From assembly GCA_003971905.1 (NCBI GenBank), contig RSEE01000152.1, positions 1-64,000 on the forward strand: DNA of 64,000 nt. The letters are read 5' to 3'. The translations under genes were made by a program, and so were the position numbers. The notes under the pieces were generated by a model. That model did no database searches, had not been told where the DNA came from, and worked only from the letters and a program-made list of their open reading frames with translations. Source of the DNA: Moniliella sp. 'wahieum' (taxonomy: Eukaryota). The stretch's first letter is position 1, and each line of letters opens with the position of its first letter. Below are positions 714-36,035 of the stretch, piece by piece.

Positions 714-1661
714 CCATCGCCGTCGCCGCCATCGCCATCGCCATCGCCAGGAACAACCGACGGCAGCGCACACGAGACCGCAACGAACGTCTTGCACGCA
801 CGCATCACGTGACGTGTGATCCGGCGGTCGCGTGTCACATGTCATATGTCAGAGACTGGGGTCCGTGCGCCATGGCCAAAATACTGGCAGTAAGCGCTAA
901 GCAGCAACAGAGCAAGCCCCAACTGACTCTCCTGACCTACCGCTGTCTGCACCCACACCGGTCCCACCACCTCGTACGCTTCCTGGGTTTCCCCGTCGCA
1001 GGGAGGGTCGAATAGCGTGGCATATCCGACCTGGTTTCCATCGCTGATGAAGGAGAGATTTTGCTTTCATTAATTAATCCAAGGGTTGATTAATGGGGTG
1101 AGTCTTCCCTCGTCCCTAGACGAGTATAACTGTAACCTCATTGACAGGGCTCAAGCGCTCAAGCGCTCAAGGCTAGGGCAAAGAAACGCTGCGCCTAAAC
1201 CGACCGGTTCATCTGGCGTCATAGTAGACTATACTCGCGTCGTGGTGCAATGGCGGTGGTTGTACGACGTGAGACTTAGTGTGGGGTGTCAAGAACCTCT
1301 GAGCGGCGGTGCTCCAGTCTCAGTGGAGCGCATACGTGGAGCGCAGAGACGCGGCAAAGGGAGCGAACGTCGGACCTGGGATGCTTGATCCAGGGCAACA
1401 GCAGCCGGCTGTTGCGGAGCGCATGCGCAGCGTGCGACACTGGTCACGCGCGCACTACCGCAGGGGGGGCAGTGTTACCTTCGGGACGTGGTTTTGGCTG
1501 TCGACCACGAAGAGCTAATTACTAGGTGGCACATACAAGTCAGCTAGTAACATACACCCAGTAATGCATCCGCTGTGCACCCTCATCACCAGTCACTAGT
1601 CACTCTCGCCTTTCTTCGTTCGGTCTCCCCACCACCACCTGTTTCCTCCCTGGACCGCAGC

Positions 1662-2937
1662 ATGTATCTCCAACTCGGCACGGGATCCGTTCGGGCTACG
1701 TCGGCGTGCACGTCGATCCGCGCACCGATACCACTGCCGACCTCAAGGCCAAGATCCGCGCAACGACCGCATTGCCGCTGGACCAGCAGCACTTGATTCT
1801 CACTGGCCACGCGTACCTGGACGACGCGCGGAGGCTTGCCGAGTACGGCATTGACGAGCCGGTGTACCACGGAGCCAAGTTCCGTCTGGGGGCGGGTGGA
1901 ACTGGTGGTTCGCACGGTGGACCGAACGACGGTCCATGTGCAGCTCGATTCGGAAGATTCTGTGGCTCGGTTCAAGGCTGCGATCGAGAAAGAGGTGGGG
2001 ACGCCCGTTGGGCAGCAGCGGCTTTGGTGCGATCTCACTGACGAAATGCTCGAGGACGATACAGGGTTCTGTCGCAGTACAAAGTATCTGAATGGCTGGG
2101 GAAGAACACGTTTTCCCTGCTGGACAAGATGACCATTTTGGTCAGGACGCCATATCGGGTCCAACCTTGCGGATCGAGACGGACTCGGAAGATAGATACG
2201 AGCACGTTGATGGCCAAAAGCCACGCGCTGCATGGCACGCCTCCCCCAGAACAGATTCTGATTTTGGATCGGATCCGTGGGCCCGTTTTCGATTCGCGAC
2301 GGATCCGACCGGACCACCGGCCGCTGCGCAGGCACGGCTTCGCCGACTCCATTTTGCACTTGATGTCGCGGCGACAGGATAGGATGCGCCTGTGCCTCTG
2401 TGGTCTCCCGTTGTGGAGGCCTGGTCGACGGAACAAAGCGGTCATGCGCTTGTTTGTCCTTACGTTCACCCACAAACTTCTCATGCTCGACGTCTGTCCC
2501 GCCGATACTGTCCTCAGCCTCAAAGCGCGCATCCAGGAGGAAGAGGGTACGCTGATCCAGCAGCAGCTCCTGTGGTTCCCCTGGGCACCCATGGCCCACT
2601 TATCAATGAGCGGCGCTTGACAGAGTATGAGGACATGGAGAACGAGTCGATTTGCACTTGGTGCCACTTGCACCTGCGCAGGAAAAAAGCATGCGCGTCC
2701 TAGTGCATCATGTGGTTGGTTTGACGTAAGTGTTTGACGTGCAGTCCGACGACACGGAGCTTGAGGTTCAGCTCCTCGTGGAAGCCAAGTGTGGCGTCCC
2801 CCGGTACCAGCAGGGTAGCCACTTGATTTTTCGTGGTAAGCGGCTGGAAGAGGGCAAGAGCCTATGGGACCAGCACGTTCGCAACGGATCCAGGCTGTAC
2901 ATGCTGATTCGCATGATCGGTGCCGCAGATCCTTATT
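1662..2937 (+). CDS. Penta-ubiquitin-like domain protein, copy A (intronless; frameshifted, with in-frame TAA at 2727-2729; possibly truncated or a pseudogene)
   Basis: Stitched ORFs give five beta-grasp-like units: VDPRTDTTADLKAKI..LPLDQQHLIL..LDDARRLAEYGI; VELVVRTVDRTTVHVQLDSEDSVARFKAAIEKEVGTPVGQQRL; MTILVRT..PPPEQILI..ILHLM; MRLFVLTFTHKLLMLDVCPADTVLSLKARIQEEEG..QQQLL; VFDVQSDDTELEVQLLVEAKCGVPRYQQGSHLIFRGKRLEEGKSLWDQHVRNGSRLYMLIRMIGA. These match ubiquitin motifs (DT..VKAKI, PPDQQRLI, LEDG.TL.DY.I). Confidence 0.8.
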
Positions 2938-3571
2938 GGCCCGGGGGGTGCGTCAGTAGTAGTGCCTTGGCCTTGGTCGCCTTCTTCCCTTTTGGTTGTT
3001 TTTGTTTTTGTTTTTGTACTTGTACTTTTGTCTATCGATCCTATCATCATCCTCCCCCCCTCCCCCCGGATTGCATTGTACTCTACTTGTGCCTGCCACA
3101 ATCCCGCTCGCGCCGACCACTTCAATGCAGGCAGGCAGTCCCCGCTGGCACTTTGAGTCGCGGATTGTATCTTGATCCTACCTCGAGACTTTTATGGGCT
3201 TGGTCGTGGGCGCCCGTGAGGCATCAGGCCAGAGTTTGAGCTTGCAGATCTCGCAGCGATCATACATTTCCACCCCTCGCTCTTGGTCGTGTTCACCATG
3301 AACAGCGAGGGTGAGGGTGAGGAACAAGGAGGGCAGATGGCCCATGGGAGTCTGCAGTGGGTGTTGTGTTCTTGGTTGGAAAATTAAATCAACAATCCAC
3401 GGACTGCCTGGGACGCCCGAGCGGAATTTCAAAAAACTGTTTCCGCCGCGCCGTGCGCCCATTTCCCGTTTAACGTTCAACCTCAACCACGCACAGCAAG
3501 GCGTAGCGGATGGCAACTTTTTTTGTCGTTGCCTGCGTGGCGACTGGTGGTGGTCTCGTTTGTGCCTCCAA

Positions 3572-7644: not shown

Positions 7645-9989
7645 TCACGCGGCATCCCCACCGCGCACAACGCGCCTCGCTGGCCCGACATGCGTCGCAT
7701 TGACCTTAGCTGCGAACCGGAGAGAGCAGAGCGACTCGGCCTGGTGCGCGAGCATCGGCGACAAGGCCAACAACATCAACGTCTTGCTGTTCCCGCCCAA
7801 CGAATTTTCAGTAACCACGTCAGCGTCGAGTTGCGGTAGGGAATGTGCGGTGCGGCCGACTTGGTACTCGGGTTGGAGCTGGGGTTGGAGGAAGTGGGGT
7901 TGGAGGAGGATGGAGCGCGGTGCTGGGCGGTAGACAGGGCGGCAATCACATCAGCCAAAGCTGAGAGGGACTTATAATGCTCTGAGCTTCGCGGAGGCGT
8001 TGAGGGTGGGCAGCGGAGCCTGAGTTGCTGAGCCGTTCCGAGCCAGCAAGGTCGACGAGAGGTGGAGGGTAGCGTCTGTACGTTCGCCCGTGTGCGGGTT
8101 GGAGCCCTGTACGCGCAGGGCAAAGACCGAGTGGGAGCGGGAGGAACGTTCGTTCATCAATGTGGCAGCTACTTGTCGTCGAGCCTTGGCCCGGTCCAGT
8201 AGCGCAAACACTTCCCTTGGCGAGGCGAGCGGGACAGTCACTGTGCCTGTGACGGTGGTGCGACCCGTAACTGGATCGTGTTTGATTTCGTGCTTGGTCT
8301 GGTCCAGCGCTTGCGAACCTAACAGATCATTGATCGTGTCGAGGTAAATCTCTAACATTTGCCCTTCAAACTCGTACGTCCACCCTACCGAACGTAACTG
8401 CTGCGCCAACTTCCAGAGCAAATGCAGCGCGCGGAATCATGCCTGCGTCCGGATGCGCCTCGGCTTCGGCGTCGGGTAGACATCCATCCAGCTCCCCCGC
8501 CTCCCCACTCGCACCAGAACTTGGTCCTGCGGCAGAGGCAGAGCCAGCAGCGGCACCGGTGGGGTGGTAGTACTCGGGAGGACCTTCGAGGGTATGTGTC
8601 TTTCCCGAACCCGTTTGGCCATAGGCAAAGATGGAGACATTGAATCCGTCCAAGACGCTCTGGACCAAGTTAGCAATTTCGGCAAACACTTCCGTTTGCG
8701 GCGCGGTGGGACCAAAGACGCGGTCGAGGGTAAACGTATGCCGCTGAACCGTACTGCTTCCCATGGCATTCTCACCCGCAGCAACGACTTGGAGTTGATT
8801 AGCTTCGCGTCCACCTGGGTATCGGAAATCAGCCAACGTCGCCTCCACGCCCGCATGGCCCGCTTGCACCCGATCGTTCCGTACCGCCGGCCGGACACGT
8901 GCAAACACTCGAATGTTCCCGCGCAATTCTTGGATTTGGTTGTGGAGTTTCCGACGTAACGTCTCGGCCTGTCGCAGCTCCGTGACCAGGTACGCGTTTT
9001 CCCGCTTCAACCCGTCCTCATCGGCGTTGGCCAGGCGCAACTGCACACGCATCTCTTCCACTTGCCTTGTTAGGTGCGCAAGTTGCGATTCTAACTGCGC
9101 CTGCGTCGCTGCCCACTCCGTTCGATCCCGCGTCGCTTTCCCTTGCGCCGTGCGAAGCGAACTCAGTTCCTCCTCGGCTAAGTGAAGGTTGTGCTCCAGC
9201 GTACGGATGCGCGCGTGGAGCGGTTCTTCCACCCTAGCCAGGTGCGCTTGGTGCGCTTGCTCCAGAGCAGCCGTTTCTTGTTCGTGTTGCCGTTTCAACG
9301 CTTCGAGCTGCACGCGCACACACGACCATGTCAGCTTCGTTCTCAACAACAACAAGCACCACAACAAGCACATTCACCACACCAAGACCAAACGGGGGGG
9401 AACGGTACGTACCTCAGCATCGAGCTGTTTCTGAGCGCGTTCACGCTCAGCAGCCAGAGTGACACTCGTACGGTAACTATGGAGCTCAGCTTGAAGCAAA
9501 GCCAACTGATCTTGCACTTGAGTCCTACGCGTTTGCTCCGTAGCCAAACGCGATCGCAGTTCCTGTTGGTCCGCGTCACAGCTACCATGGTGCTGTAGCA
9601 ACCAGGCTAGCTGCTCCGATGCTGGTCCTGACCCTGACCCTGAGGAAGTGCCTGACCAGAGCAGAGCCTGACCCCGAGCCGGAGCCGGAGCCAGACGCGG
9701 CGAGTGGGTCTGTGGGTGGATGTCCAGCCGAGGCGGAGCGGCGCAGACGTGCGCCAACTGCTCCGGCCGTAGCAGCAGTAGCTAGAGCAGAAGGGAGCAT
9801 GTGCGGGCGGACGACGCCGCGTAATCCCGTGCTCTTTGTGCTGGCGGCAGTGGGGAATCCAGCGGGGTGGGACGGGAGACGGTTGATGCGTTCGGGTGCG
9901 GTGGTGAGGGGAGCGCGTTTGGCGCTGCGCGCGCCGCGTGGCGCGCTGCGCGAGGTGGAGGAGCGTGTGCGCGTCGAGGCCTTGCGCAT
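7645..9989 (-). CDS. KAR3: Kinesin-14 (C-terminal motor), Kar3/Pkl1-like
   Basis: Coiled coil followed by RRKLHNQIQELRGNIRVFARVRP, P-loop FAYGQTGSGKT, NERSSRSHSVF, HIPYRNSTLTWLL, SLRFAAKVN; one intron at about 9310-9412. Confidence 0.93.
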
Positions 9990-16713: not shown

Positions 16714-17490
16714 ATGGACCTTGGACGCGTCCCCCCCATCACGCGCGCCTGGGCTGGCCTGACGCTAGCGCTGGGCGTGGCGGAGCACGTTGGACTCGTG
16801 TCGCAGTTCCAGCTGTGGTTCAGTCCACGGCAAGTCTTTGTCAAGGGCCAAGTGTGGCGTGTGGTGAGCTGTTTTCTGTTTTTGGCCAGCTGGACCTGGA
16901 CAGCCTGATGCACATTTTCTTCACGATGCGGTACTGCTGGATCTTGGAGGACGAGTCGTACCAAGGACGCAAAGCGGACTACGTTTGGCTCCTGCTCTTG
17001 TCCTCGGGCGCACTACTCTTCCTCAGCCCATTACCGGTCAGGAATTCCTAGGTTCAAGCTTGGCGTTTGTCCTGCTGTGTATCTGGTCCCGCCGTAACCC
17101 CACATTCACATTTCGCTCTTTGGTCTGCTCACTGTGCTGCACCTTACTTCCCAATCGCTTGGGTCGCCCTCGAGGGAATGTTCGAACTCACTTTCAAACA
17201 TTCCCCCGATCCATCCTCTCCCAACTCATCGCCATGGCCGTCGCTCATCTCTACTACTTTGCCATCGACGTATGGCCACAAGAGTACCGCTCCGCAGGGA
17301 AAACCGTTTTGCAAACCCCTTCTTTCTTGTACGTTCCCCCACCCCTTCCGTATCCTCCTCCTTTCACCCCTCCCTCTGTCTTCTCTTCGCCCCTCCCCCT
17401 TTGGCTCTCGAATAAGCCTGTTGGCTATTGACTGACGTTGCTATGGGCTGGGGTGCGCGCATCTGGCACAGGTTGCTCGACGATCAGTAG
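16714..17490 (+). CDS. DER1: Derlin (ERAD rhomboid pseudoprotease)
   Basis: PPITRAW, QVWRVVSCFL, FTMRYCWILEDESYQGRKADY, IWSRRNP, HLYYFAIDVWP; last intron 17329-17471. Confidence 0.9.
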
Positions 17491-19514: not shown

Positions 19515-20832
19515 CTCGCGATGCAGCTGCATCTGTAGCCGGTACCCGGTAACGGGCACTTGGTACGCGCACGGGCGCTTAGGGTCCTCTACTGTGGCTT
19601 ACCCTGTATGCCTCTTGGTTTAGGTTCGCCACTGAGGACTGAGTACTGACAGTCAGCTTCCTGACTCGCTTGCGCTAGGGAACTGTACCCTGCGCACCGA
19701 AATTATCGATCATCGTTCTTGCACAGCCACCTGGGCCGGGAGAGGCGCGTGACACAGTCCTCCTCGTCCCATTGCCTTTGAGCTGTAGAACTTGTAGAAC
19801 TTGTAGAACTTGTAGAACTGCAAACTGTTGAGCCTGATGAACTGGGCAGCTGGGGGCGCATAGGTCTCCCCCCTTGTCCCAAACGAAGGGATAAGATCTA
19901 AGATCCGAACATGCGACATTTGTGGGCGGGCTGTGCTCCCTTCTGCACGGTCTCATGCAGGGTGCGGGCGCTGGCCCGCAGCGCGCAACCTACAAGTTCG
20001 CGCCACAGTGTGGACCGAGCTGCAGTCTGAGGCCTGAATACGAACAAACCGAGCTAGAGAGACCCAGTGAGATCTCGGTTCAGGTCTCTTTCAGGCCTCG
20101 TTTCGGTATGTTTGTCCTTGAACGTAGGGCGAATCTCATGTGTGGCATCGTGCCCGTTTACTTTACCTCTCTAGGTTGCCCGTGCGGCAGCCGCGTCTCC
20201 CCTGTTTCCCCGGGCCTGTTCCCCATTCTTCCTCTATTATGTTGTTTCCCTTTCAGTCTCTGTCTGTTAGCAATGGTTCTTCGTGGTTTCTCCCCAAGGT
20301 CCATCGTCGTCGCCCCCCTCCTCTCCTGGCCAATTGATCGACCCAGTACAAGCACCTCCTCCTCCTCTTAGTCGCACCTCTAGCTCCCACTTCTTCAGCT
20401 CTCAGTTCCCCAGCCCAAGTCCAGCCCAATTCAGCCACGTGTGGTCCTGCCTAGTACAGCCACGCCACCCCCTGGCCCAGTCCAGCTCTAGTCCAGCTGT
20501 GTGGATCCTCCCCGCGGCCCCTCCCCGTCGCACAAGGCTTCAGACACGCTACTGCTTCCCACACAGCTTTGTGCCACACTTGCAGCTGCCTCTGCTGTTC
20601 GCCGAGAAGCCTCTCCGTGTCCCTAGCTCTGCTCGGACGCACCAATCAGCGCAAGCGCGTACCTACCATGAGTCGACCTTAGGATCTAAGGGATTGTACC
20701 CATAAACTCCTGGGCGGGCTCCCTGGCGGCGCGCGCCCGTGTGACAACAGGCAAGTTACAATAGAAGAGGCGAACGCACTCTTCTTGTGGTACGGCCCGC
20801 GGGCATCCAATATCCAGGGGTCACCGGTGAAG

Positions 20833-22101
20833 TTAATAAGGATCGGCACCGCCGATCATACGAACCATCATGTACAGCATGGACCCGTTGCGAACGTTTT
20901 GCTCCCACAGGCTCTTGCCCTCTTGTAGCTGCTGACCACAAAAAATCAAGTGGCTCGCCTGGCGAAACCGCGCAATGCCTGCCCGCTCCTCGATTTGCAA
21001 CTGAATCGTCACCTCGGTATCTTCCGGCCGCACGTCCAGCACGTACACCGAGTCGATCAAAGTACCCACGATCACCCGCATCCCCCCCGCGGGGAAGCGG
21101 TACCATGTGCAAAATCGTCTCGTTTTTAATATCCTTATGCTCCCACACGCGCTGCTCGTCCTCCAGCGCACCAAGCGAGCTCCATGGGAACAATAGCGAT
21201 TGTCGCTCGGTCGTAACTCGTCTGTTCCTCAATGCGCGATTTGAGACTGAGCACCGTATCGTCCCGATGCACGTCCAACATCAGCAGTTCGTGGGTGAAC
21301 GTCAGGACAAACAGACGTCTCACCGCTTGTGTCGACGAGGCATAATGTTGCATGTCGTGAGACCACACAATCCCATCTCGTCCTCGAGCCGCGGCATCAA
21401 GTGCACGACCGACCCGCTCCTCAGCCCGCACCGGTGCAACGGCATCCGTCCGGCCGGATCCGTTTGGATCGCAACACGGGCCCGTCGATCCGGTCCACAA
21501 TCAAAATCTGTTTTTCGGGGGGGACATGGACGTGCCGCACAGGGCCTGGACTTTGGCCATGAACCTGTTCGTATCCTCTCCCAATCCGTCTCGATGCGCA
21601 CCGTTGGTCCCGACGGCCTCTGACCCAAACGTGCATCTTGTCCAGCAACATAAACTCGTTCTTCCCGGGCCATTCGCATACTTTGTACGTGGACAGAACT
21701 CGTGTATCGTCCTCTAAGTGTTCGTTGGTGAGATCGTACCATAGCCGCTGCGAGCTAACCGCCGTACCTACCTCTTTCTCAATCGCTGCCTTGAACTTAC
21801 CCACAGGATCTTCCGAATCGAGCTGCACCCGCACCGTCGTCCCGTCCACCGTGCGCACAACCAATTCCACCTGCCCCGCCAGACGGAACTTCACACCGTG
21901 CCTCAGCCTCGCCAACACCATACTCGGCCAACGTCCGCTCATCGTCCAGGTCCGCGTGGCCAGGGGAACCAAACGCTGCTGCTCCCGCGGCAGCTTGTTC
22001 GTCCCGCGGATTGGCCTTGAGGTCGGCGATGGTGTCGGTGCGCGGATCAACCTGCACGCCGACGCAGCCCGAGACGGATACCGTGCCAGTTGGAGAAACA
22101 T
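20833..22101 (-). CDS. Penta-ubiquitin-like domain protein, copy B, ending ...MVRMIGG-ADPY*
   Basis: Collinear paralogue of 1662-2937 (VDPRTDTIADLKA, VELVVRTVDGTTVRVQLDSED, VPPEKQILIVDRIDGP, LFVLTFTHELLMLDVHRDDTVLSLKSRI, SHLIFCGQQLQEGKSLWEQNVRNGSMLYMMVRMIGG). Intronless; only 1-bp indel frameshifts. Confidence 0.85.
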
Positions 22102-22499
22102 TCCGCGGTTCAGGAGGCAAACGTAGGTGGTCGTAGGCAGTTCGAACGAAGAAAAGGCGAAAGTGAGCAGGGCAGGTAGCGGGCGCCCTGGGTGATTACT
22201 ACCTGGCTGTATGTACGCCTCCTATTAGCTCGTGGTCGACGGCCAAAACCGTATCCGGCAGGCAACACTGCCCCCCTGCGGCGATGCGCACGTGACCGTT
22301 GTCGCACGCTGCGGATGCGCTCCGCAGCCACGCTGCCGCTCAGGTGGCCACCAACGACAACAGGAATCCACATCAATATTCCAGGGAGGCGGCCGTGTGC
22401 GCAGCTCACCGGCGGTAAGTGGGGAGAAAGGGAAGAGAAAGGGAAGAGAGGGGGAAGAGATGGGGAAGATGAGAAGGGGAGCTACGTTCACATGGTGTT

Positions 22500-22960
22500 C
22501 AAAATGCTAAAAACCACAGAACAAAGAGATCCGAGAGTTCTCCATTCGCTCTCTAGCAGTAGTTTGCCGTGTCCGTGCTGCATCGAGAAAGTGAAGCGCA
22601 TCTCTCTTCCACCACCCCATGCTACCCATGCTACACTGGACCTCGACGATCTGTTTGGCGGCATAAGTTGTTCCTGCCGCCTCTCCCGAACATCCTCTGA
22701 GGCGTTGCGCCAGGACCTGTTCCCCCGCATCCGCCCGGAACATAGTAAACGTCCTGCAAACAGGTGTTCAAGTGGACAAGCATCAGGCCGACACAATTCT
22801 CATATTCAGCCGTTCCATCCGGATTCCCATATGTGCAGTGTCGTGTCTCGGCAGTTATGGACCGAACTCACCACGGCGATCAACCGAGCGAAACTGTTGC
22901 CCGTCCAGGTCGGTGGGGCGCATACCCTTACAGAACGGAAGGACCGTAAGATCGACTCAT
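22500..22960 (-). mobile_element. Probable Ty1/copia integrase relic
   Basis: Broken frames read RSVDRRGEF (cf. RSD.GGEF), MERLNMRIV (cf. AERLNRTIV) and WRTLGSLCSVV (cf. LRVFGSLCYV); many stops. Confidence 0.4.
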
Positions 22961-23775
22961 GTGTGTAGTTTTGTGTCTCAGTGTGTGGTTGGTAGATGTG
23001 GATCGAGTGAGGCACTCACCGAATCTTGTGGTGGCGGCGCAGGGGTGACAAGGCGGCCATTTATTCACCGGTTTGGGCCGTAATAACGTGCCTAAAGCCT
23101 TCGGCCGTAGGAACAGGTCCAGCACTGAGCGGAGGATAAACGCTGCCAAAGCTGGGATTCGACAGGGACATGATTCGACGGGGCTGGAAGAGGGCACACG
23201 CGCCTTTACTGGGAGTCGGGGGTTGAGTCGACGCAGCCGAATAGGACCCACCTCCTTGCACGCCGTCGGAGTCATGCTCGGCGCGTACAGCAGCCAACCG
23301 CGGAATGTACGAGAGACATGCATCCCTTACGCAAATTGCCGCGCTCGGCTGAGAGTCTGACAGTCTGAGCCACAAGGCCGTCCAGTTGAGCAATAAGGTT
23401 GTCCCTTTTAGAGACGAGACGGCGCGGCGGACCCAGTGGAAAAAATTTGGACAGGGCTAAGTACTTGGTGTAGAATGAGCCGGGATAGGATCCAGGGCAG
23501 AAGTGAGTTCCTTGATGTGGCGGAGGCGCATTTCACACCTCGCTGTGAGTTCGTCCTAGTCAGCAGCGACGGAATCGCGTCCTGAGTTAAGGTGTCACGC
23601 TCACGCGGGAGAGGGAACCTCTCTCTGCAAGCAGCGCGTGTGGTGCAACAGCGAGGGAATCGCGCTCAGGCGTAAGCGAGCCGCGTTCACAGCGGATCAC
23701 CAAAAGACATCATTTATGTTTTGATAAAAAAGGTCAGAGCAGAGTAATTTGCCGTGGGTGAGACAATTCTGTCAG

Positions 23776-23960
23776 CGCGCTGCACGTCAGTGACGTCGCC
23801 GATGTCACCACCCTGAACGTCAGATATGTCCTCGATGTCATCCCCCTGCAGGTCAGTTAGTCCTCGATGTCATCCCTTGAACGTCGCCGACGTCACCCCC
23901 TTGAACATCAGAAACGTCGCCGACGTCACCCCCTTGAACGTCGAAACGTCGTTGACGTGC
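23776..23960 (+). repeat. Array of ACGTCGCCGA(T/C)GTCA-CCCCTTGAAC units resembling transposon subterminal repeats
   Basis: About 6 imperfect tandem units; a related array starts at 28944. Confidence 0.7.
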
Positions 23961-24140
23961 CCTTGGGCGACGATCTGACGAATTGATCCTCTATGCTCGC
24001 TCTCCTGGGTTACTATTGTATTACATTTATATACTACTCATTCTAGCACCATCGAATGCAGTGCAATCGTCTTCGAGGTACTTTTTTGCATTGCGATGGG
24101 TCAATATGGACTTGGGGGCTTGCCATTGAGAGGTTTGGAA

Positions 24141-25934
24141 TTATAGCCGCCAAATTACTTCAGTCTCAGAGTCGTCTGTGCGGTCGTCGTCCTCGCCATC
24201 TGTGCCCTCTGCGTCAAAGAGGTTGACTGCAGTGCCTTCGATGTCCCCTGCATCCTCTTCGTCTGTTATTTGTGCCCGGGTTACTGCGATGTGACGGAGG
24301 GGGTGATTTCTGCACGGGTCGCATGCCAGGCAGTACAAAATTCAGGTTACCTTGCGGAAGATGCGTGTCCGCAATGCCTCAAATTCTCCCATGCACTTGT
24401 CCAGCCCAGTAGATAGCTTGCGGGGCGAGATGTGTGAAAAAAGTCAGATGACCTGCTGGACGACAACGGGGTGGCGACGTACTTATGATCGGACGAAGAG
24501 ACAGTGATGGCACTGAATATGTCATCGCAGCGCCTGCCGCTGTTCAGATTCCGGTTGAGCAAGAGGATGCACAGGCAGATGGATCAGGGAAGTTGCGATG
24601 TTGTGAGACACGATCCATTTCCTCCGGAAGTCAATGTCGTTCGGTGCATAGCAACAGAAGCGCTTTTGATGAGAACGGGTGAGAGATAAGTTGTTGTGGC
24701 CATATTGCGAGGAGAGCAACGAGTGAAAAGGCGGGGCCAGTACGTACCAGGATTCGGATGCGCTCCTTGCGACAGTGAGCTCTTCCGGGGAGTGGCTGCG
24801 AAAGTAGACGGGAAACCTACGACGCACGAACTCAGCCTGATCTTCAATTGTGCGCGTTCCGTTTCCTTGATCGGTACGGTGCATGCTCTCCGGCAACTGG
24901 ACGATGTGTTATTTGTTAATAGATGGCTTCGGCGTTTGGGTTAACGCACCTCTTTCAAATAGCCTTTGTTGAGCGTTACCCGCCTCTGGATGAAGCGGTC
25001 TGTGTCCCTGTTCAACGCTGGTCTAGTCGGTTGATCTCGAGAGCGGTGGCCTCTAGACCACCATCATAATGTGCTTGTCTGGCGAACATACGACAGAAGT
25101 CGACCATTCGCTGGCCCTTCCAGGTGCCTTGAACAGGAGGCAAACCCACGAGTCGTTGATCAAGTATCGCCGTCAGACGCAAAAAGAACATATGTAAGTT
25201 TAGGTCAGTGAGAGTGCTTTTTGTGCGCATGAGGGGGCGGTGATACTGTGGTATATGATACCTGTGGTGATACTGACCCGCTCAACCGCGTTGTGTTTGC
25301 ACGTCGGCCGCATTGTCCGGGTTGCGGACTCGGTCATTAAGGTCATTGATGTCCGTGTCGTGACGTATCACAGTGCGTCTCAAGTCTCCAAAGTGGTCCA
25401 TCTCGTCGTGCTCGCGACGCAAGGCCAGATCGGAAATCAGATCCAACCTAGTTGATGTATCGTTCTGTTGTTGTTGGAGGGCGGCGGGGAATTCACTCCT
25501 GGTGGCGCGGACTTCACTCCTGGTGTATGGCGTTGACGTCGTTCCTAAGTTCAGCACGCAGACTTTGAAGCGCTTGCAGCCAGGGTTCCCCATCATGTTG
25601 GTCCATCCCGCACGCCCTCAGGGGCAAGGGGGTGATCTTGTGGATCGCTTGCGTCATTTTGATCGACAGCTTCCGGACCATTTGCCTGCGCGTCTTCATC
25701 GTCGTCTGTTGCTGTCTCAGGGACCGTCAGGATGAAGGCGGGGCGGCGAGTCCGGTTGGGGGCAGGCTCGTCCATGTCCGGTTCGTCCATTTCGGCTGCC
25801 TGGCGACCTCGCTTATTGTTCGCGGTACGGGTGTGGGTGGCACTGGCGATGTTGCTGCGTCCGCAAGAGGTGTTCACGTGAGCATTGCCTGGGTGGGCTG
25901 TTGCATTTACTCTGTTTGAACCGCGGCGAGCCAT
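24141..25934 (-). pseudogene. Orphan fragmented ORF inside the transposon island (acidic N-terminus, coiled coil, acidic C-terminus)
   Basis: Chain of minus-strand ORFs 25593-25934, 25282-25596, 25012-25230, 24522-24896 and 24141-24338 with protein-like composition; no family recognised. Confidence 0.45.
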
Positions 25935-26659
25935 GCTGGTGGGGTGTGCGAGGAAAGAGGCAGGACCAGGGGGGCTGGATGGCTCTTTTTGTCAAGTGTG
26001 GGCTACAGTATGGGGGTAGAGGAGATTGCGCCACTCACATGCGGGGGCTCCATACAACGCACTAGGAAAGTCCTTTTTGCCCCTGGCCGGAATTGGATAG
26101 CCAGGGTCCTAACTGAAGAACCACTGGGGCTGTTGCTGCAGGGAAAAAGCTGCGCCCACCATTCTCTGCACCAGGCAGTGTAAGGGTGGGCGCTGCCAGG
26201 GGGCCCGGGGGGTGGTTAAGTGGTACAATCCATGGGAGATCCTATAAGGTGACTCACGATAGTTACACGCTTGGGCTGATTGGTGCCAGGGTCTGAGCGG
26301 GGCTAGGGACAAGGAGATGCCTCTGGGCGTATAGCAGAGGCGGGGCTGCAAGTGTGGCAAGGCTGTGCAGCATAGAGAAAGAACGGGGGACTGGGCAAAA
26401 CAAGGAGGGCGGTTGCCGCAGGGGCAACCTACGTAGCAAGGTATAATGCAAAAGGATACCGGGAGACTATCGTTTCCAGATTGAATCTGACCCCATGACC
26501 AACCTGGGGATGGGGTTACTAGTAAGACGAAAGGCGCGCGTAGGCTCCGCCGGACTTCAATCTACGCCCGGCGTGACATATGTGTAACATGTGTTGACAG
26601 GTGTAGGCAACTGTCGCTGGATGATCGATGATCGGCGAATAAGGTTGCGTACTCAGTTG

Positions 26660-28437
26660 AGTGTTTGGCCAGATCGAAGCAATCAGGCCAACAGTGAAAG
26701 TCGATTGGCACATTCTCATAACGCTCGCAGTGGGTAACCTGACATTGAATGTATCGGCACCGACGTACTGGTGCCCTCACTCCTCCAACTCCTGCTCCAG
26801 CTATATTTGGCTGGAAGCATGTCCAGCATTGTCAGGGATTATTGGATGTGCACCGGATGTGGTCGATGCCCGTACTCGGCTTTTCGACACAGGGACGCCC
26901 GACGTCACCAAGATCACACCGGGCACACCGGGTCGCGTCCAATAACCAAGCTGCAACACCGGACACTAATGCAGCAGGCATCATTCGTGCACCATGCGCC
27001 CCGGCGCGCAAGTACGATCTCAGCTGGTTCTAACCGGCGAGCGCTGGCCACCATCTCTACCGGTCCACATCTGACATTAATATACCAGACGTGACCTCCC
27101 CTGAATTGCACCTTCAGCCCTTCTCTGGATGGCCCCCTGGGTCTCCCACGCAAAATGGCGATGTGGAAGACGCTTTTGGATGGAGGACATGGCTGAAACG
27201 TGCATTGCTCACAGTCGGCTGGCCCGCCTACCGAACGCGAAGCGACAGCGGATCCTCAGTCCGGATCCAAGCCAGAGCGGCGATCAACTCGGCGCGCACA
27301 CAAGTCTGATGCCTCACAAGACGCACTCCTTTGCAGTCTCCATCTCTGTATTTTGAGGATCTGTCGGAAACAATAATACGTCACCACGGCCCGATTGATA
27401 GCAATATGTTCGCACCCTTTACGAATCCGTTCATTGCCGTCATCAACATCACCCAGTTATGGTTACCAAAAGGTCTATGCGGCGAGAGCTCGCCGAACTG
27501 GTCCTGTCACTGATGAGATTAGCTATTGCTGCGTCGCCACCTTAGCCACCGTTCCACGCTGGAACCATTCCACGCTGGAGTGGGAAAATAATATCTTTTC
27601 ACCGTTCCCACGTTGACTATTTGTGATGTCTCAGATGATCTCCACCCGCAAGATGGGGTGGATGGATTAACGCGAATCCCACTTCACCATCCGGCTCGCG
27701 ATGTGTTGCCAAGCGAGACGACTGTGCTCTAACTATACAAGCGCGTATGTTGGCACGGTCACCTTTATCTCTAGCCGGTCACCTTTATCGCGGGAGCTAC
27801 TGGGCATCGGTACTTCCCTGGGCCTCTGCTGGCGCGACGCGACGTGACTCTGCACATCGCCTTTATTATTTGCCAGACGGCCAGCTGATGAGCGGAGACT
27901 TCCAATGACAATCTTCCGGGACATTGGGACAGATCGCACACGCAACACCGCGTTCATTAAGCAAAAGGTGGAGTTTTGCGTCAAGGAACAGTTGAAGGGC
28001 ATGCCGGTCCGCAAAAGTAAAACCTGTCGTTAGCCGTATTCATTGTCGAACTGGTGTCGTTCGCTATGGTCCGTTCGACGGGGTCAGGGTCATTCTGTGA
28101 CCACCGACAATTGATCTGGTCCAATGAATATCAGGCCGAGTCGGAACACTGCGATGAAGGACGTATATACTACACGGACCAGTGGGGCCCAAACTCCGGT
28201 CTCATCCAACACCTTACTGTTGTCGGAACCAACGTGGAATGGGTCATACGGTTGGCTCACGAGCACACAGACCTGATGGAACAAGAAGAAGAGATGGTGA
28301 AGAAGTGTCAAGTCCGCGTATACGACAGCCTAACCTCTTCTTGGAGACAGTCTCGCTTGACGGATTTCGGTTTCAGACCCGTCTCTCAAACGCGCCTGTC
28401 CGACTATGGATTTATCAGGACGAACGACTCTCGATGA
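26660..28437 (+). pseudogene. Decayed orphan ORF ending in two PIP-box-like motifs
   Basis: Successive plus-strand fragments; the last (28054-28437) ends QSRLTDFGF..QTRLSDYGF. Confidence 0.35.
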
Positions 28438-28943
28438 TCTCGTCGGTTTGCTCGGAGAACCCAACAGACTTTTCATGACTTTCGTTTGCGGGGTCAAAGC
28501 AATGTGAAGGACCAACAAAAGCCTATCTTCAGCGGGGCTGCACCAGTCGTCCCTGCCTGCCCTGTACTCAAGCAGAACTAGCCGCAGGATGGACGCCTGA
28601 TGAGCCAAACCCCTATCAGTGGGCACAATGTTGTCCTGCATGGCCTGCCTTTTGGTCCACATGAAATGAGCTTCCATTTACCTGACGACTAGACCTTGGC
28701 CACACCAATTGCCGATGTTCCCCTGGCTAATCTGAAGACGCATGTCCCCGTAGAGCACACCCTTCCGTGCGACGCGAAATCGAATCCCTGCCGTTGGCCA
28801 GCTACCGTGAGCGCGTATAGGAAGGACGCGTGTTGACTAGGTGGTTCTGATGGTAGCATTTGCTAGGAGAGACACGAAATGGTGTGGCCGGGTGCGATTT
28901 TGAAACGATGCAAAGTTTCACATGTAGCCGGCAGTTGGCCCCC

Positions 28944-29090
28944 CGCGCTGCACATCATTGATATCAACGACCTCTTTTGCCGTCGCTGACATCAACGACC
29001 TCTTTTTCGACGTCGCTGACATCATTTTCCTCAAAACCATGCAAACGTCGCCGATGTCAGCTCCCTGACATCGCTGATATCTTTTACCTC
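28944..29090 (+). repeat. Second subterminal-like array (CGTCGCTGACATCA units)
   Basis: Begins CGCGCTGCAC like the 23776 array and contains ACGTCGCCGATGTCA. Confidence 0.65.
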
Positions 29091-29399
29091 TTTTTGAAAT
29101 CCGCTGTGTTCCCAGGGTAGTAGCACACAAGGGCACATGGGCATGGCGTTTTCTGCTTGAAGGGTAACAATGAGGCTGGGAGGAACAGGATGAGTGCAAT
29201 CGAGACCTCGTCCGACGGCGGGGGCGGCATCCGGCCCGATTGATGCAGGGATGGGCTGGATAAGAGGGACATATTGTAGTTAATAGCTGAGAGGGTTAAG
29301 GCAAAGTTTATAAGAACTTCGAGTTTGGGAAGATGCCGCTCTCGTCAACTCAACCATGCTGTATCTCGATCAATGCAACGTGGCTGTATCAAACCATTG

Positions 29400-31990
29400 T
29401 GAGCATTCTACGCCTTTTCAACTTTTATTTCCTTTGACCTCACCGATATCTGCATGCACAACTTCAGTTTTGATTTGGCCCCTGCGTTTCCCTTCCCTGT
29501 GTAGCCTTAATCAGTTGGCCAACTTGCGCAACTCGATGATTATGTCGTTAAAGTGCAGCCTGCTTCCCCGTCCTAATCATGTTGCCCACACGGGCATTCT
29601 CACCATAAGCATCCAGCTCTTAGGATTAATTTCATCTCCGTACGGTTAGGATATACATGCTGTAGGCTGTATGGTCCCACATACTTCCCTATCGTGACAA
29701 CCAGCCCGCTAGTCCAGTAGGCATATATCGTGTATCGAATGGGTAGGTTAGTCTTAATAACCAAACCAGCCTTTCCCATGAGAAAAAATGCAAAATGGGA
29801 CTTACGGAGGGTCCTGAGGACAGAGCAAGCTTCTATGCGTGCGCCTTGGCACCCATCATGTAGCTGGAAATGCTTCAGCTGCATTCACCGTGATCGATTA
29901 ATCATTTGGATACCATGGTTTAGACAAATTCGCCCGAAACCGTATGTCCGCTGGGCATATCAGAAAGCATAAATTCAGTAGCACACACACAAAGCATGGC
30001 TTACGGGCTGAAAGACACGGTCCTCCCTAAGTATCCCATTGAGTTGATATCGTGAAGGGCTTGATAACTCATTTAAGGTATGATACCCGTTTAGGGTTTT
30101 CTGACGAGGCTTCCCAATTCTTTGTTGACTTCGCCTCGCACGAGTGGTTTGATACCGATGTCCTGGTCTATAGGTGAGATTTGGCTACTCATGGAATGGC
30201 ATTACAATGCCGGTCGTGACCCGAAGTGTCTAGGTCCAACCTTTCATACTTTTGTTCGGGTTGTCATGATCAGGACTCGACATCGGTGGCAGCCTCATAC
30301 CGGAGCACATCATCGATAGTCACTAGGCACATAGCCTAGGTAATTGATGGATCCCAAAGGGGCTAATGAATTGATCATAACCATTATCCCGACTACGTCG
30401 CGTTATACCTAGTTTGGGAGGGTCACATTCTTCAGCTGAGCATTTGCGATCGCATATATTGTGCAATTCATGAATTTGGTACTGAACGCATGCGCTAGAC
30501 TAACATTTCAATAAATCAATTCCGATAATTGATTGCCGTGAGTTAAGAAATGACTACGGAAGTTGTGGCTGCTTTCGAGAGAATGGCTGAGCCATGGCAA
30601 TTCTAATCGAGTGCGATACTTACGGTAAAGGTTTCCCATAGTTTTTACAACGATGTGGGAGCCCATGCAGTATTTTTATTCTCCTGATTTTCATCGGTCA
30701 CAGATGTCGCGGGTCATATTTCTGGCCTAAGCTCAACTCGGAGACCATATGGTTGCGTAACCACTGCCATTTCTGCTGCCAAATCAAAAGAGATGCGATC
30801 AATGGTGTGTGGAAATCGAACTGGCCCACAAAAAAGAAATGACGGAATGCCGTTAACGGGATGTGTAGCATGCTGTTGTAACGAAAATCATGGGAGATGT
30901 ATTGATGAGCAACGCGGCAGCTCCAAGAAGGTAAGTAATCGGGATATTGATATGCAAACGTCGCTCTTCGATCAATATATCAATCAAATGAAGTACGATC
31001 CATAAATCCCAAATCAACTAGGCAAGCCGCTTAGTCCAACAATGTTTGGTTACCGAAGGTCTTGCGTATTCTCGCGGAAATGGGCCTTGAATTTTTATAT
31101 TGTTACACAGGTGCGATCTTCATCAGTTCAGCATGCAAAAACTCAAGATCACGGGCGAAATGAGAGAAAATGTGGAGGGGGAAATATGGATACTTGGCAT
31201 TCAGCCCCTGCTAATCCTAACGACCGATCGCGATGGTTAAGCTGCATCGGTTGAGAGACGACCAAATAGGGCCGTTGGTTCAGTTACCTCCGACTTTACA
31301 TGAAGATGAACACAGTACAGGGCCACGAAGATCAAACCCCTTGACGTCCGAGGGGCCTTCTTATACGCCTGTATGACAGCTTCTTAGCAGCAAAACCGTC
31401 ATATGGGAAACATGACAGTATACGTTTTAGGACCGCGCGGACTCTGAGTCATGTGAATCAATTTTTCCATTGTGACCAGCTCGCACCAGTCTTCAGGACG
31501 ATTCAGTTGCAGAACCTGAATATCAGTGCTCACACTGGGTAGTGTTAGCACGGCCGTCATATGATTTGTACCGTGATAGTAGCGTCTTATAAATTGCCGG
31601 CCATGGAACCATCTTTACGGGGTTCCTGGGCGCAAAACCTATACAGTAGTGCCAGTCGATCCTCAACTTGGTTCCCTTGTCTGGGTTAAGGTCAGGAGGA
31701 TACCCCCCACATTCGTAATGGACTCCTGTCTTGGGGAAGAACGATTAATTCCATCAGCAGGCGGATCGCCGACATGAGCGTGTTAAGTAACACCGAGGGG
31801 CCCAAGATCCATTTCTCACATTGGGAAAGACAAGCATTTATTCTACTATCACCGGACGATCGAGTCAGAGACAGTGACACTTTGAAAATCTTGGTTCATC
31901 ACCCAGATGCCCATCACCTTCAATCATGACGTATTCGTCTGTGTCTGTTGTTTTGCATACCGTACTACGATGGTATCGGCGCTCTTGTCA
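29400..31990 (-). mobile_element. Heavily degenerate Ty1/copia pol relic (integrase, RT, RNase H order)
   Basis: Minus strand: integrase-like ...SPLRMWG near 31.7 kb; RT-like KYRTRL (cf. KYKARL) near 30.6 kb and CLVTIDDVL (YVDD position) near 30.3 kb; RNase H-like SGLVVTIG...LQHV...TEMKL near 29.7 kb. The order is that of copia; riddled with stops. Confidence 0.6.
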
Positions 31991-34900
31991 GCATCCCGGT
32001 GTTTGCGATCAGAACGGATATGCTACGGATGGGCGCCCCCAGGGAGATATGTACGGATGGGCGCCCCAGGGAGCCCGCCTACTAGGGGGGTGGGGGTTAG
32101 AGGCTTACCCACTCCCCGGGATTTACGTGGTGGTGCAGCGTCCGAGCGAAGCTCCTAGAGACATGGGTGGCCCTGTCTGAGTATAGAAGAGTCAGTGAAG
32201 TTGTGCCAAAGCTGCGTAGACCGGCTTGGACGGTACTTGTGTGCCTAAAGCCTTCGGGACTCAGGGGGTGGCAAGTGGCAGCGGAGGAGAAACACTGCCG
32301 AGCTGGAGCTGGGATCTGGAGGTAACGTGGCTGAAAGGTGAAGCCACGCGCGGATGGATTTGGTTTCGACGTAGTAAGAGGGCAGACGCGAAGGCTTCCA
32401 CACTATGGACTGCGGGGGAAAAACCCAGATCAGATCCGATGACCACAATAACCGGGGGTGGGGGGGTAGTAAGGCGAAGGGAGCCGTAGGCCCCGCCAGG
32501 CTTGCCAGCCCGTCTTCGCCCGTGATAGAGGATCTGCTCAGCCATGCAGTTACTCGACGAGCCACTGCTTTTACCCAGAACGTGGAAAATTGCTAGAGAA
32601 AAAGTCCATAGCAGCGTTGAATAGTAAGCATTCAGTTAGCGGACCTTTGTCTTCCTATATATAAAAACTCTCCATACTAAGAACACTTTGGATGCAAGAC
32701 TAATCATGTGTTCTATGCTTCTTCCCTTTCAAATGTATCACATCACCAAAGGACTCAATTGCTGGACTTCCTCTAAACCAGCAGAGGGATGATGACCCGG
32801 AGGTGAGAAGGTCCCTTTCCCGTGGCCTACTCGTTTGTTCCCTCTGCCCAAACGGTACCGAAGTTCCCTCTTCTGGGCCCCAAACCAAAATTGTCTCCGG
32901 GCCGTCGGGGAAGGCAAAATTGTCCCAAAAGTACACTGAGAGCTGAGAAGACAACGTTAGAGACTCGGCTAGCCACTAAGCACGTTTTGGCCGTGAACAT
33001 ATACAGACTATTTACAATAGGTTGGGCACATTGGGGCACGTTATGAACACACAGTTGTGCTCACGATCAGGAGGTATCCGCAAGGAGAGAGATGCTCTAG
33101 TTCATCCTCACGGTCTCCTCCTATACCATGCTGCAACGATTGAGCTGCATAATGGGACTGAATTTGATACTCATTTGAATCTGATTTCCACCCCCGCCTA
33201 TTCCACATGAACATATCAGAAGAGAAAGGAGCAGCACCTGCAAGTGTGGACAACACTTCCTCCTAGGTGAAGAGTAGCTTTATGAGCATGCTATCAATTG
33301 AAATAGTCATAGTTGTTTACAGATGGTTTAGATAGTCTAAGGCTCCACCATCCCCCCGCCCTGGTGCCAGATCTGATCTTCACACAAAGGAAAACGCCAA
33401 GAAAGTGTTCGTTATGGCACCACCATGGGATGCCCTTTCTTGAAGCTTCAGTTTTGTGCTGCTATGCTGTGGTCCCCATATATATATGGATTTCCCACGA
33501 ATACCATACCATTATTGATCGTTACAAGTCCAGTCACGTGCGTTTAAGGCACCTCTACATTGAAGTTGAGGCAAGACTCCGCCATGACCTCATCCAGCTC
33601 GTAGAATGAGCGGCGACGCCCGAGTCCTTTCCATCAAGAATGATAGCGACGTTAAGGGGCACTCTTAGTATTCCTATCTCAAAGCTCAAGCGAGGAGTCA
33701 GAGTTGGGTGGGGTCACCGGCATAGATACCCCGTCCAATAGAAGAAATGTGGAACAATGTGGAGGGGGTAATGACGAGGGTGTAGCATGATGAGATCTGG
33801 AGTCAAGATGGTCCTCGAAGGTGATGCAATCGCACTGGTGATGGTAGTGGTCTAAGCCAACCATCAACGCCTACAGAGGAACATCAAACAGCGAGTCGCC
33901 ACCAGGGGCTAAGCTGCGAAACAAGGAAAAAACATGAGAGAGAAAAACATCGGAACTCCCAGAGCCTGAGGAGGAACTGAAGGGACATTGGCCAAAGCAC
34001 GAGCCACCGATGGCTTAAACACAGCAGAGTAGTAGGGTGTTGAAGGCGCTTATGAAATCCACAACAGTTATATGTCGAGTATTATGTTGGTCAAGCACAC
34101 TGGGCGCCAGAATCTGGATCATCTGGCAGTGATTTCCTCGCCGCTGTCACACTCTAGCTCCCATATGTCTCTGCCATAGGCCGAGAGGCCACTCCTTGTC
34201 GTAGCTTCGCATTTCTGATCCACTAACCGGCTCAAGCAAAAGTAAATACGTGGCCACCCACGGTAATACTCCAGATCAGATTGTACTCCTAAACTCTAAA
34301 ACCGGGTTAGCGGGACCCGCCCGTAACACTCGCTGCGCCCTTCTCATTTGCCATTTCCCACTCACCTCATCGACCTCATCGACGCGCCCCTCTACTCATG
34401 CGCGTCAGCCGTACACAAAAGTCACATTATTAACCGCACCCACCTTCCGCGGTTGCGGTCTCTGCGCGGTGCCCGACAATGCACTCAAAGCATAGTACCA
34501 GCGGCTCCAGATGCGAGTCTCCATATGTTCTTCTTGTAGGTAGAGCCCGATTAGTACACCCTGAGAAATTGAGAAGTGAATTTCTACCGTTGTGGTTTGT
34601 GTTCGACCATGCTAGTAATATGGGATCTGAGGCACAAGACTTCAGCGTTCGCGCGACCCATTGGGTGTATACTCTCTCTGACCCACTTGAAGACATATAT
34701 GTCTAGACGGTTAAGGGCGAGGCGAGTGGCGTCAGGGAAGCATTGGCCACTGCTGGTGCCTACCATTCGTGACCCTAATAGCTAGGCACTGTATGTACAC
34801 ACAGCAGTGAACTCTTCTGTCCTGTCGGCTATATTATAGCTCGCTGTGCTCCTCTATTTTTTTGTCGGCATTATGAAAGTAAAAGAGAAGTATGCTGGTG

Positions 34901-36035
34901 TGAGGGGGGGAGAACAAAAAGGTCTATTAGCATAGCCTCTATATGTGGGAAAGCTAGCGCAGTGATGTTTTTAATGGACGACGGCCTGCTTAGGTGAGTG
35001 ACGCAGGTTGCATGTGGTCGTGTGCTCCAATTTGTGACGGGTATACTTATAGCCTAGAGACGATATTTAAGCTGGGCAAAAAGAGGTGAAGCCGGTGACG
35101 CTGTCCCGGTCATGAATCCATGGACCCAGATAACTTTACACGAGAGGCTATGCATTTGAGTCGCAATTGACACTAATCAAAGAAACAGGGGTGGAATCAC
35201 TGTTAACACTATTCACTCCTTGCAAAGAGATTGACATTTTCAGGGGCGATGGTGCCATGCAGTGTGGTAGAGTCCGACGTGGGAAACGCCGCGATCCTAT
35301 GGATCACAGGTGCAACGCAGGCTTCAGATAAGGAGTAGTGAAGGCAACGTTCATGCAATGAGGGAAACAAAAAATCCTTGATGAGTACGTGACCCAACAT
35401 CCCGTTTTAGCAATGGCGGACAAAGGGGAACGAAGGGAGAAGACTGCGGGTGTGTGGGGAGGCGTCGGGGGAAGATTAAAGACGAAGCGGTTGTGAGAGG
35501 AAAGAAAGCCCAGCAAGAAAAGAAGGTTGGAGATGCGAGTTGTCAAAAAACCTGTCCAGCCGTCCAGGAAGGATTTGCTAACCCTAACACCATCGGCATA
35601 GGCCGCTATCAGATTGCTTTGGACCCCACGGACATGCCGCGACCAGCAATTGACCAGACGACGAGGAGGGAGGGAGGTGCGACGGGAGGTCCCTAGGAAA
35701 ACGGGAGAAAAGAGACTGGGGAGAGAGAAGGCGGTGCTGGCCAACTAGGACATCCGCAGCGTGCGCTGCCACTTAGACAGCCTTTCCGGCCTACCATCCG
35801 ACAGGCTCGGCAGCGGCGAAGGATGGGCAGCAACCCCACAAGCGCACACCGATAAACTCTTCGATAACCGATCGCCCCCAGAACCCTCGAAGCTTCAAGT
35901 TTCAAGTGCCAAGCTTCAAACGCAGTCACCGTCCAGGGCTCACGCGCTCACGCTTCAAGTGGCGCCGCCACGCCGCATCCGCCCACCCCCACCACCACCT
36001 TCTCTTCCCCACCGCCCTCCGCCACCTGCCCCACC

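Follow-up and report, generated by a model that had tools for sequence, protein, structure and literature searches.

The DNA analysed here is a stretch of 64,000 nucleotides from Moniliella sp. 'wahieum' (contig RSEE01000152.1, positions 1 to 64,000), hereafter called the window. It contains two related loci, copy A and copy B, each of which can be read as a single chain of five head-to-tail ubiquitin-like (Ubl) units. Copy A lies on the minus strand at 20833..22101, with its ATG at 22101-22099 and its TAA at 20835-20833, and is readable from one to the other only across about 11 frame changes. Copy B lies on the plus strand at 1659..2936, is inverted relative to copy A and repeats its five units in identical order, with about seven frame changes in 1.28 kb.

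All units of copy A are encoded on the minus strand. Unit 1 (21874..22101) contains four internal frame changes and ends in ..KFRLAG, while unit 2 (21637..21873) is wholly in frame and ends in ..MLLDK without a diglycine. Unit 3 (21365..21636) is a degenerate Ubl with an insertion and four internal frame changes. It is followed by a spacer of about 15 residues (21321..21364), the frame of which was set by comparison with copy B; this is the sole junction with a linker, the other three of the four junctions being direct. Unit 4 (21082..21320) ends in ..VPLP[R/A]GG immediately ahead of the Met of unit 5. Unit 5 (20848..21081) is intact and ubiquitin-like from this Met to its diglycine (20853-20848), after which only the four-residue tail ADPY and the TAA stop remain (20833..20847). 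The clean frame of unit 5 comprises 82 codons (21081-20836) ending in RMIGG-ADPY-stop and exactly matches the last-domain sequence quoted in a preliminary description of the locus. A Met is the first residue of units 3 and 5 in both copies and, in copy B, also of unit 4.

The longest open pieces of copy A (226, 121, 113 and 107 aa) are spread over three frames. Its five-unit reading was obtained by comparing the three frames side by side and by chaining matches to a ubiquitin-unit profile, which was built here from 148 units of database matches. Frame changes are located near 22087, 22010, 21966, 21906, 21615, 21577, 21524, 21447, 21325-21360, 21210 and 21085. An automatic codon alignment gave a second estimate of 9 frame changes in copy A and 11 in copy B. 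As a means of assigning frames, such an alignment of A against B with frameshift moves was rejected: it at times followed wrong frames common to both copies, the two DNAs being alike in every frame, and the frame assignment used here rests elsewhere. Copy A contains just two seven-base homopolymers, one at the unit 4/5 junction (21082..21088, G7 on the coding strand) and one inside unit 3 (21517..21523), each of which hosts one frame change. Because the diglycine between units 4 and 5 falls in the run of seven G, its reading is uncertain. No sign of an intron was found in copy A, homology continuing without a gap over each frame change. The preliminary description had reported one intronless gene at this position. 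The coordinates and strand fit, with ATG and TAA found at the two ends, and the absence of introns holds, but a single open reading frame (ORF) is not present. The observation is thus real and partly confirmed, although 'one gene' was an overstatement.

Copy B was first seen as Pfam ubiquitin matches on four plus-strand pieces (1565-3236) in a scan of 129 ORFs of at least 100 aa. By blastn, positions 20835-22326 of copy A align in inverted orientation with positions 2937-1413 of copy B at 72.6% identity over 1559 columns, including 101 gap columns. The similarity stops at the stop codon and reaches 222 bp upstream of the ATG. In this common upstream block (22105..22326 on the minus strand for copy A, corresponding in inverted orientation to 1413..1658 on the plus strand for copy B), 185 of 216 ungapped columns are identical (85.6%), as compared with 75.9% in the aligned codons, a pattern that suggests either conservation of a promoter or leader sequence or else gene conversion. 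The block contains a G-run (AGGGGGG) and a CT-rich stretch immediately before the ATG.

Counterpart units of the two copies are 57-78% identical, and their ends can be compared one by one. Unit 1 ends in RLAG in copy A and RLGA in copy B, unit 2 ends in LLDK in both and unit 3 runs into the spacer in both. Ahead of the unit 5 Met, copy A reads P[R/A]GG whereas copy B reads APAQEKS. Unit 5 ends in MIGG plus ADPY in copy A (VRMIGG) as opposed to MIGA plus ADPY without a stop in copy B (IRMIGA). At the C-terminus of copy B (2919..2939, plus strand), G-A thus stands for G-G and, after ADPY, TGG replaces the stop, giving RMIGA-ADPY-W and a frame that continues to 3236. Unit 5 of copy B further contains an in-frame TAA (2727..2729, plus strand) where copy A has TAC (Tyr). 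Copy B looks like a degenerating copy. A short intron at the position of its stop was considered and rejected, as the candidate GTAAGT..CAG spans only 19 bp and is too short.

The assignment of the units to the ubiquitin fold was assessed with the Pfam family PF00240 (gathering cut-off 25.4 bits), each unit being trimmed to its boundaries before scoring. The cut-off was passed by four of the five units, namely unit 1 (30.5 bits, copy B), unit 2 (31.5 bits, copy A), unit 5 (30.3 bits, copy A) and, through its N-terminal half, unit 4 (26.0 bits, copy B). Open pieces of both copies likewise matched the family. Unit 3 (copy B 2195-2398) scored 12.6 bits (E 0.12), which is weak and below the cut-off, although the match falls on the expected part of the profile (positions 22-70), and our own Ubl profile likewise gave only weak partial matches to it. 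When the six frames of the complete window were searched with this profile, matches at E<1 were found only at copies A and B. Identity to ubiquitin is 29-41% per unit, and among sibling units of one copy it is 10-31%. The five mutually divergent units of the preliminary description were all recovered, and its domain-by-domain ubiquitin assignment is borne out by Pfam for four of them and is weak for unit 3.

Unit 5 is 36% identical to ubiquitin, and its residues 1-78 align with ubiquitin 1-76 (E 3.3e-10 for a single ubiquitin among the sequences of the PDB). It matched 303 PDB sequences, the best 60 of which are all ubiquitin or engineered ubiquitin-based proteins. Units 1 and 2 also match ubiquitin best in the PDB, unit 1 through its copy B counterpart at 1.4e-5. 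The residues aligned with ubiquitin Leu8, Ile44, Arg72, Gly75 and Gly76 are retained in unit 5, while His, Met and Ile are found at the positions of Arg42, Leu73 and Arg74. None of the seven lysines of ubiquitin is kept in unit 5 of copy A. An AlphaFold (AF2) model of unit 2 shows a complete beta-grasp (two strands, a helix, two strands, a short helix and a strand) with a predicted local distance difference test score (pLDDT) of 89.3 and a predicted template modeling score (pTM) of 0.79; superposed on ubiquitin, it gives template modeling (TM) scores of 0.83-0.87 and root-mean-square deviations of 1.1-1.6 A.

Closer relatives were sought among database proteins. A phmmer search with the 226-aa ORF against 1.84 billion representatives returned 491 matches. 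Among the best 150 of these, identity does not exceed 34%, many are plain polyubiquitins and none fits any unit better than plain polyubiquitin does. Word-based searches against longer proteins yielded 55 candidates for the unit 5 piece and 94 for the piece covering unit 3, spacer and unit 4 of copy B, none of which scored. Nothing closer than ubiquitin itself was therefore found in three protein searches, in agreement with the lineage-specific character proposed in the preliminary description. In 42 of the 150 best phmmer matches, every unit is less than 80% identical to ubiquitin, with 4-16 units per protein, so a divergent poly-Ubl architecture as such is not rare. These 42 arrays, counted by unit sequence and not by host taxon, weaken the earlier statement that multi-domain conjugatable Ubls, exemplified by ISG15 and FAT10, are animal proteins. 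Divergent multi-Ubl proteins of the library (e.g. P0030 with 10 units and P0001 with about 15) resemble copies A and B in being arrays of non-identical Ubl units, but there is no specific kinship, as the A and B units match them no better than plain polyubiquitin among the best 150. Titles and abstracts on tandem or multiple Ubl domains and on ISG15-/FAT10-like or polyubiquitin-like proteins mention no stand-alone fungal multi-Ubl protein, which at the level of titles and abstracts is weak evidence.

The lineage of the host can be approached through the neighbouring kinesin gene, whose best named matches come from Violaceomyces, Testicularia, Ustilago, Pseudozyma, Thecaphora, Exobasidium and Tilletia at 45-55% identity. 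With its nearest proteins in the Ustilaginomycotina and identity no higher than this, the DNA is therefore that of an Ustilaginomycotina-like fungus to which no sequenced species in the library is closely related. This supports the fungal nature of the gene assumed in the preliminary description.

Copies A and B were compared over 354 codons in 16 ungapped blocks, which cover about 84% of the gene (about 420 codons) and exclude junction codons. The blocks were picked by coordinates from frames reading as Ubl in both copies. Differences between the copies are distributed over codon positions 1, 2 and 3 as 79/61/116 (chi-square p 1e-4). The Nei-Gojobori method gives a nonsynonymous distance (dN) of 0.208, a synonymous distance (dS) of 0.645 and a ratio (omega) of 0.32, with a bootstrap 95% interval of 0.25-0.44. 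As a control, the same blocks moved by 1 or 2 bases give omega values of 1.01 and 1.50. The aligned codons contain no stop in copy A and one in copy B, while neutral simulation based on the observed or the synonymous distance predicts 4.7 or 8.3 stops per copy, the probability of zero stops being 0.01 or 0.0005. The GC content at third codon positions (GC3) is 0.75 in copy A and 0.73 in copy B, compared with 0.64-0.70 in the kinesin, MSC domain and aldose epimerase genes. Within unit 5, omega is 0.27 in the C-terminal half, its best conserved part, versus 0.37 in the N-terminal half. Given the low omega, the shifted-frame controls and the small number of stops, the two copies represent real coding sequence, and they evolved as such for nearly all of the time since their duplication. 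Repeat-induced point mutation as a source of the differences between A and B was ruled out, transitions (123) and transversions (133) being similar in number.

The origin of the frame changes was considered in the light of conserved genes in the same window. The C-terminal kinesin (7669-9205) shows gap-free frame switches at 8059, 7976 and about 7800, over which both the Pfam profile positions and tblastn alignments with three named Ustilaginomycotina kinesins continue. Further switches occur in DER1 (16729-17323) near 16885 and 17020, in a RhoGAP gene (37354-37785) between 37563 and 37648, in KRE6/SKN1 (48950-50540) at 49757 and in PRMT5 (52410-54240) near 52665. Frame changes counted in the conserved genes are lower bounds, since mostly pieces of at least 100 aa were scanned. 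As conserved genes switch frame without a gap in homology, the assembly must be considered indel-noisy. ORF-based gene calls on this window will be fragmented. Just past the ATG, each copy of the Ubl gene lacks one base, but at different sites (about 22087 in A and about 1691 in B), and each reads on from its own ATG once the missing base is allowed for. This points to independent single-base losses near the ATG and not to an inherited defect. A common frameshift after the ATG, which would have been a sign of an ancestral pseudogene, was rejected because the missing base sits at different places in A and B. A gap census of the plain DNA alignment (46 gaps, of which 37 have lengths not divisible by three and 27 are one base long) was set aside as too noisy at 73% identity.

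The frame changes could instead be real, in which case A and B would be decaying duplicates of a polyubiquitin-like gene from which no protein is made. Such decay would explain why frame changes are denser in copies A and B than in the kinesin or the MSC domain, why copy B contains an in-frame TAA, no longer has its terminal stop and reads GA in place of GG, and why no orthologue was found in the three protein searches; according to PMC7066184, ubiquitin pseudogenes are also among the most abundant pseudogene families. It is difficult to reconcile with an omega of 0.32 as against controls of 1.0 and 1.5, with zero stops in the 354 codons of copy A where 4.7-8.3 are expected under neutrality, with a GC3 equal to or above that of housekeeping genes and with an upstream block conserved above the coding level. 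The same type of break is also found in conserved genes of the window, and indels that are not accompanied by corresponding substitution damage are characteristic of read errors. Copy A, with many indels but no stop-creating substitution, accordingly has a read-error profile and not one of decay. We consider decay of both copies to be unlikely. That a duplicate of a ubiquitin gene which might be dismissed as a pseudogene can encode a working variant is illustrated by UBBP4 and its product UbKEKS, as outlined in the same paper (PMC7066184). Copies A and B resemble UbKEKS as ubiquitin-gene duplicates that could pass for pseudogenes. The extent of divergence is different, however, UbKEKS being four residues off ubiquitin while the units described here differ from it at about two thirds of positions.

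In their overall organization, copies A and B are most easily compared with polyubiquitin genes (UBI4/UBB/UBC type). Shared features are the head-to-tail units, the absence of introns, the three of four junctions that are free of spacers, the several Met-initial units, the short extension past GG in the last unit of copy A and the fact that units 1, 2 and 5 best match ubiquitin among solved structures. In contrast to polyubiquitin, the units are not identical, being as different from each other and from ubiquitin as described above; units 1-3 are devoid of RGG and unit 5 of copy A is devoid of ubiquitin's seven lysines. Processing of polyubiquitin by ubiquitin C-terminal hydrolases (UCH) and ubiquitin-specific proteases (USP) needs the RGG motif. 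Because units 1-3 do not have this cleavage motif, the product should stay one uncleaved chain. By the same token, we regard it as highly improbable that the genes encode a polyubiquitin-like precursor from which deubiquitinases release five different Ubl monomers. The direct junctions, the Met starts of units 3 and 5 (A) or 3, 4 and 5 (B) and the GG-Met reading at the unit 4/5 junction of copy A would all be in keeping with such a precursor, but RGG is absent from the ends of units 1-3 (RLAG, LLDK and spacer in A; RLGA, LLDK and spacer in B) and, in copy B, from the unit 4/5 junction as well. In polyubiquitin, concerted evolution normally maintains the similarity of the repeats (PMC10457151).

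We hypothesize that A and B are a live, diverged pair of five-unit poly-Ubl genes whose products remain uncleaved and are read by ubiquitin-binding proteins, an account that, taken as a whole, we hold tentatively and with slightly less than even confidence. Both copies would be protein-coding genes of an Ustilaginomycotina-like fungus, each encoding one chain of five ubiquitin-fold units. The array would descend from a polyubiquitin-type gene in which homogenisation ceased, so that each unit drifted separately, and the five units would already have diverged before duplication into A and B. Such an origin is suggested by the direct nature of three of the four junctions, the Met starts, the fact that units are nearer to ubiquitin than to their siblings and the 57-78% identity between counterparts. 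Most frame changes would then be single-base indel errors of a noisy assembly and not the result of gene decay. Cleavage would occur at most between units 4 and 5, and there only in copy A. The chain may represent a built-in, non-cleavable mimic of a linear ubiquitin chain, unit 5 keeping Leu8, Ile44 and Arg72, and would most likely be recognized non-covalently through its Ubl surfaces by ubiquitin receptors or deubiquitinases. Covalent attachment via the unit 5 diglycine may be possible, though in copy A alone.

A number of observations weigh against a live pair of genes. Frame changes are denser in the copies (about 11 in 1.27 kb for A and about 7 in 1.28 kb for B) than in the genes used for comparison, where the kinesin shows 3 over about 1.4 kb and a match to the MSC domain, 1.1 kb long, shows none. 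Some breaks may thus be real, above all in copy B. No orthologue was found in the three protein searches (phmmer and two word-based). For a relative of ubiquitin, the omega of 0.32 is relaxed; it also averages two lineages, and the choice by eye of Ubl-like blocks (354 of about 420 codons) biases it somewhat downward. The structural models have to be read with similar care. The unit 2 model leans to the ubiquitin fold, its alignment consisting of 15 rows that are mostly ubiquitins, and the model of unit 5, made from a two-sequence alignment, is poor (pLDDT 57.9), although the order of its elements is correct and its fold matches are all ubiquitin (TM 0.57-0.65). Structure prediction, which the preliminary description had proposed for each domain, hence supports a beta-grasp for unit 2 and is weak for unit 5. 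The non-covalent mechanism, finally, is one that we infer.

A different function was put forward in the preliminary description, which saw in copy A a five-domain, conjugatable modifier of the ISG15/FAT10 type. The ADPY tail would be trimmed, the diglycine of unit 5 would be activated by a general activating enzyme (E1) such as Uba1, and either the whole chain or, following cleavage between GG and Met at the unit 4/5 junction, unit 5 alone would be attached to targets. The five divergent units and the terminal diglycine of copy A on which this proposal was built are present. Unit 5 ends in RMIGG with just four residues before the stop, it retains ubiquitin's Leu8, Ile44, Arg72, Gly75 and Gly76, and its C-terminal half is the best conserved part (omega 0.27 vs 0.37). 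The diglycine, lost in units 1-3, is kept in the one unit where it would matter, and unit 4 of copy A likewise reads GG ahead of Met. The diglycine does not extend to the sole relative available, a comparison that the preliminary description had itself suggested: copy B reads RMIGA, has lost its stop and carries APAQEKS at the unit 4/5 junction. Further points against a modifier are the replacement of ubiquitin Arg42, Leu73 and Arg74 by His, Met and Ile in unit 5, the homopolymer run in which the unit 4/5 diglycine is located and the failure of three protein searches to find an orthologue. The ADPY tail is the same in both copies, which is unexpected for a discarded propeptide but, with four codons, is a weak argument.

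No dedicated E1, conjugating enzyme (E2), ligase (E3) or protease was seen in the 64 kb. Specifically, there was no ThiF (E1), UQ_con (E2), HECT or UCH/USP match in 282 scanned ORFs, with the proviso that genes are fragmented and a small E2 could be missed. These 282, out of 289 ORFs of at least 100 aa, were scanned completely or for the most part; the other seven lie on the strand opposite the kinesin or copy A. As far as the fragmented ORFs allow, the earlier remark that no E1, E2 or E3 genes are adjacent is correct, and conjugation enzymes could be encoded elsewhere in the genome. Overall, we judge a modifier of this kind to be improbable. Even more doubtful is its most specific form, a fungal five-unit non-cleavable chain whose last unit, with Arg72 and GG and without any of ubiquitin's seven lysines, would be loaded by a general E1 after trimming of ADPY and then conjugated to its targets as a ready-built chain incapable of extension. 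Apart from this, we know of multi-domain Ubl modifiers only in animals.

Comparison with individual modifiers shows both similarities and clear differences. ISG15 likewise has more than one Ubl domain per chain and a C-terminal diglycine with a short extension in its precursor. It has two domains instead of five, however, ends in LRLRGG instead of VRMIGG, is served by a dedicated E1, E2 and E3 and is induced by interferon. FAT10 (UBD) also consists of tandem Ubl domains, and a FAT10 chain (7pyv_C) is found among the weaker matches of unit 1 (3.9e-6). FAT10 has an Ile ahead of its diglycine and is, to our knowledge, confined to animals. It differs from the chains described here in having two domains and a free diglycine without propeptide, as opposed to five units and four residues past GG. 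Its activation by UBA6 is reported in PMC13572539. Unit 5 is also unlike NEDD8/Rub1, being 36% identical to ubiquitin and having Arg at position 72. NEDD8 consists of one Ubl domain that shares about 60% identity with ubiquitin and carries Ala72, and it does not appear among the best 60 PDB sequence matches of unit 5. Contrary to the preliminary description, the closest relative of unit 5 is thus ubiquitin (best 60 of 303 PDB matches) and not ISG15, FAT10 or NEDD8. A role in stress, immunity or host interaction, likewise suggested there, is supported by nothing in this analysis.

Copies A and B, inverted and 18 kb apart, flank seven housekeeping genes (1413-22326), encoding Rpp14/Pop5, TIP41, the kinesin, a Src1/Heh-type protein, a Methyltransf_28 protein, DER1 and aldose 1-epimerase. 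An inversion of this 18-kb block through recombination between A and B is conceivable. On the other side of copy A lies a stretch of 13 kb (22300-35400) with a GC content of 0.46-0.57 per 2 kb, compared with about 0.58-0.65 in most other parts of the window. No Pfam match was found in its 130 ORFs of at least 55 aa, and it may be a gene-poor or lineage-specific region. Past this low-GC stretch, genes for RhoGAP, Bap31, importin-beta, KRE6, PRMT5 and Vps36 are found. Rfam and tRNA scans of the window detected no RNA genes.

Several repeats are located around copy A. A purine-rich tandem repeat at 22424-22478, made up of about 4 copies of the unit GAGAAAGGGAA, is located some 320 bp upstream of its ATG. 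Downstream of copy A, an inverted repeat (20562-20738 / 26184-26367; 187 columns, 76% identical) has its second arm 5.5 kb away and is adjoined by a second short match (20172-20237 / 26372-26431), the two together possibly forming a small dispersed element. At 23781-23942 there are direct repeats, each about 40-60 bp long, which are 79-83% identical and spaced 88-121 bp apart.

In indel-noisy assemblies, real lineage-specific genes resemble pseudogenes, and it was a paralogue in the same window that told them apart here. The stronger proposal, a counterpart of ISG15 or FAT10 in a fungus, would be of note but depends on a single diglycine, which copy B does not share. If copy A is expressed, it would be a polyubiquitin array that escaped homogenisation and has been selected as five different units within one uncleavable chain. 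Should this be true, the locus would constitute a natural experiment on the use of a fixed linear Ubl chain and a candidate case of a novel fungal Ubl function.

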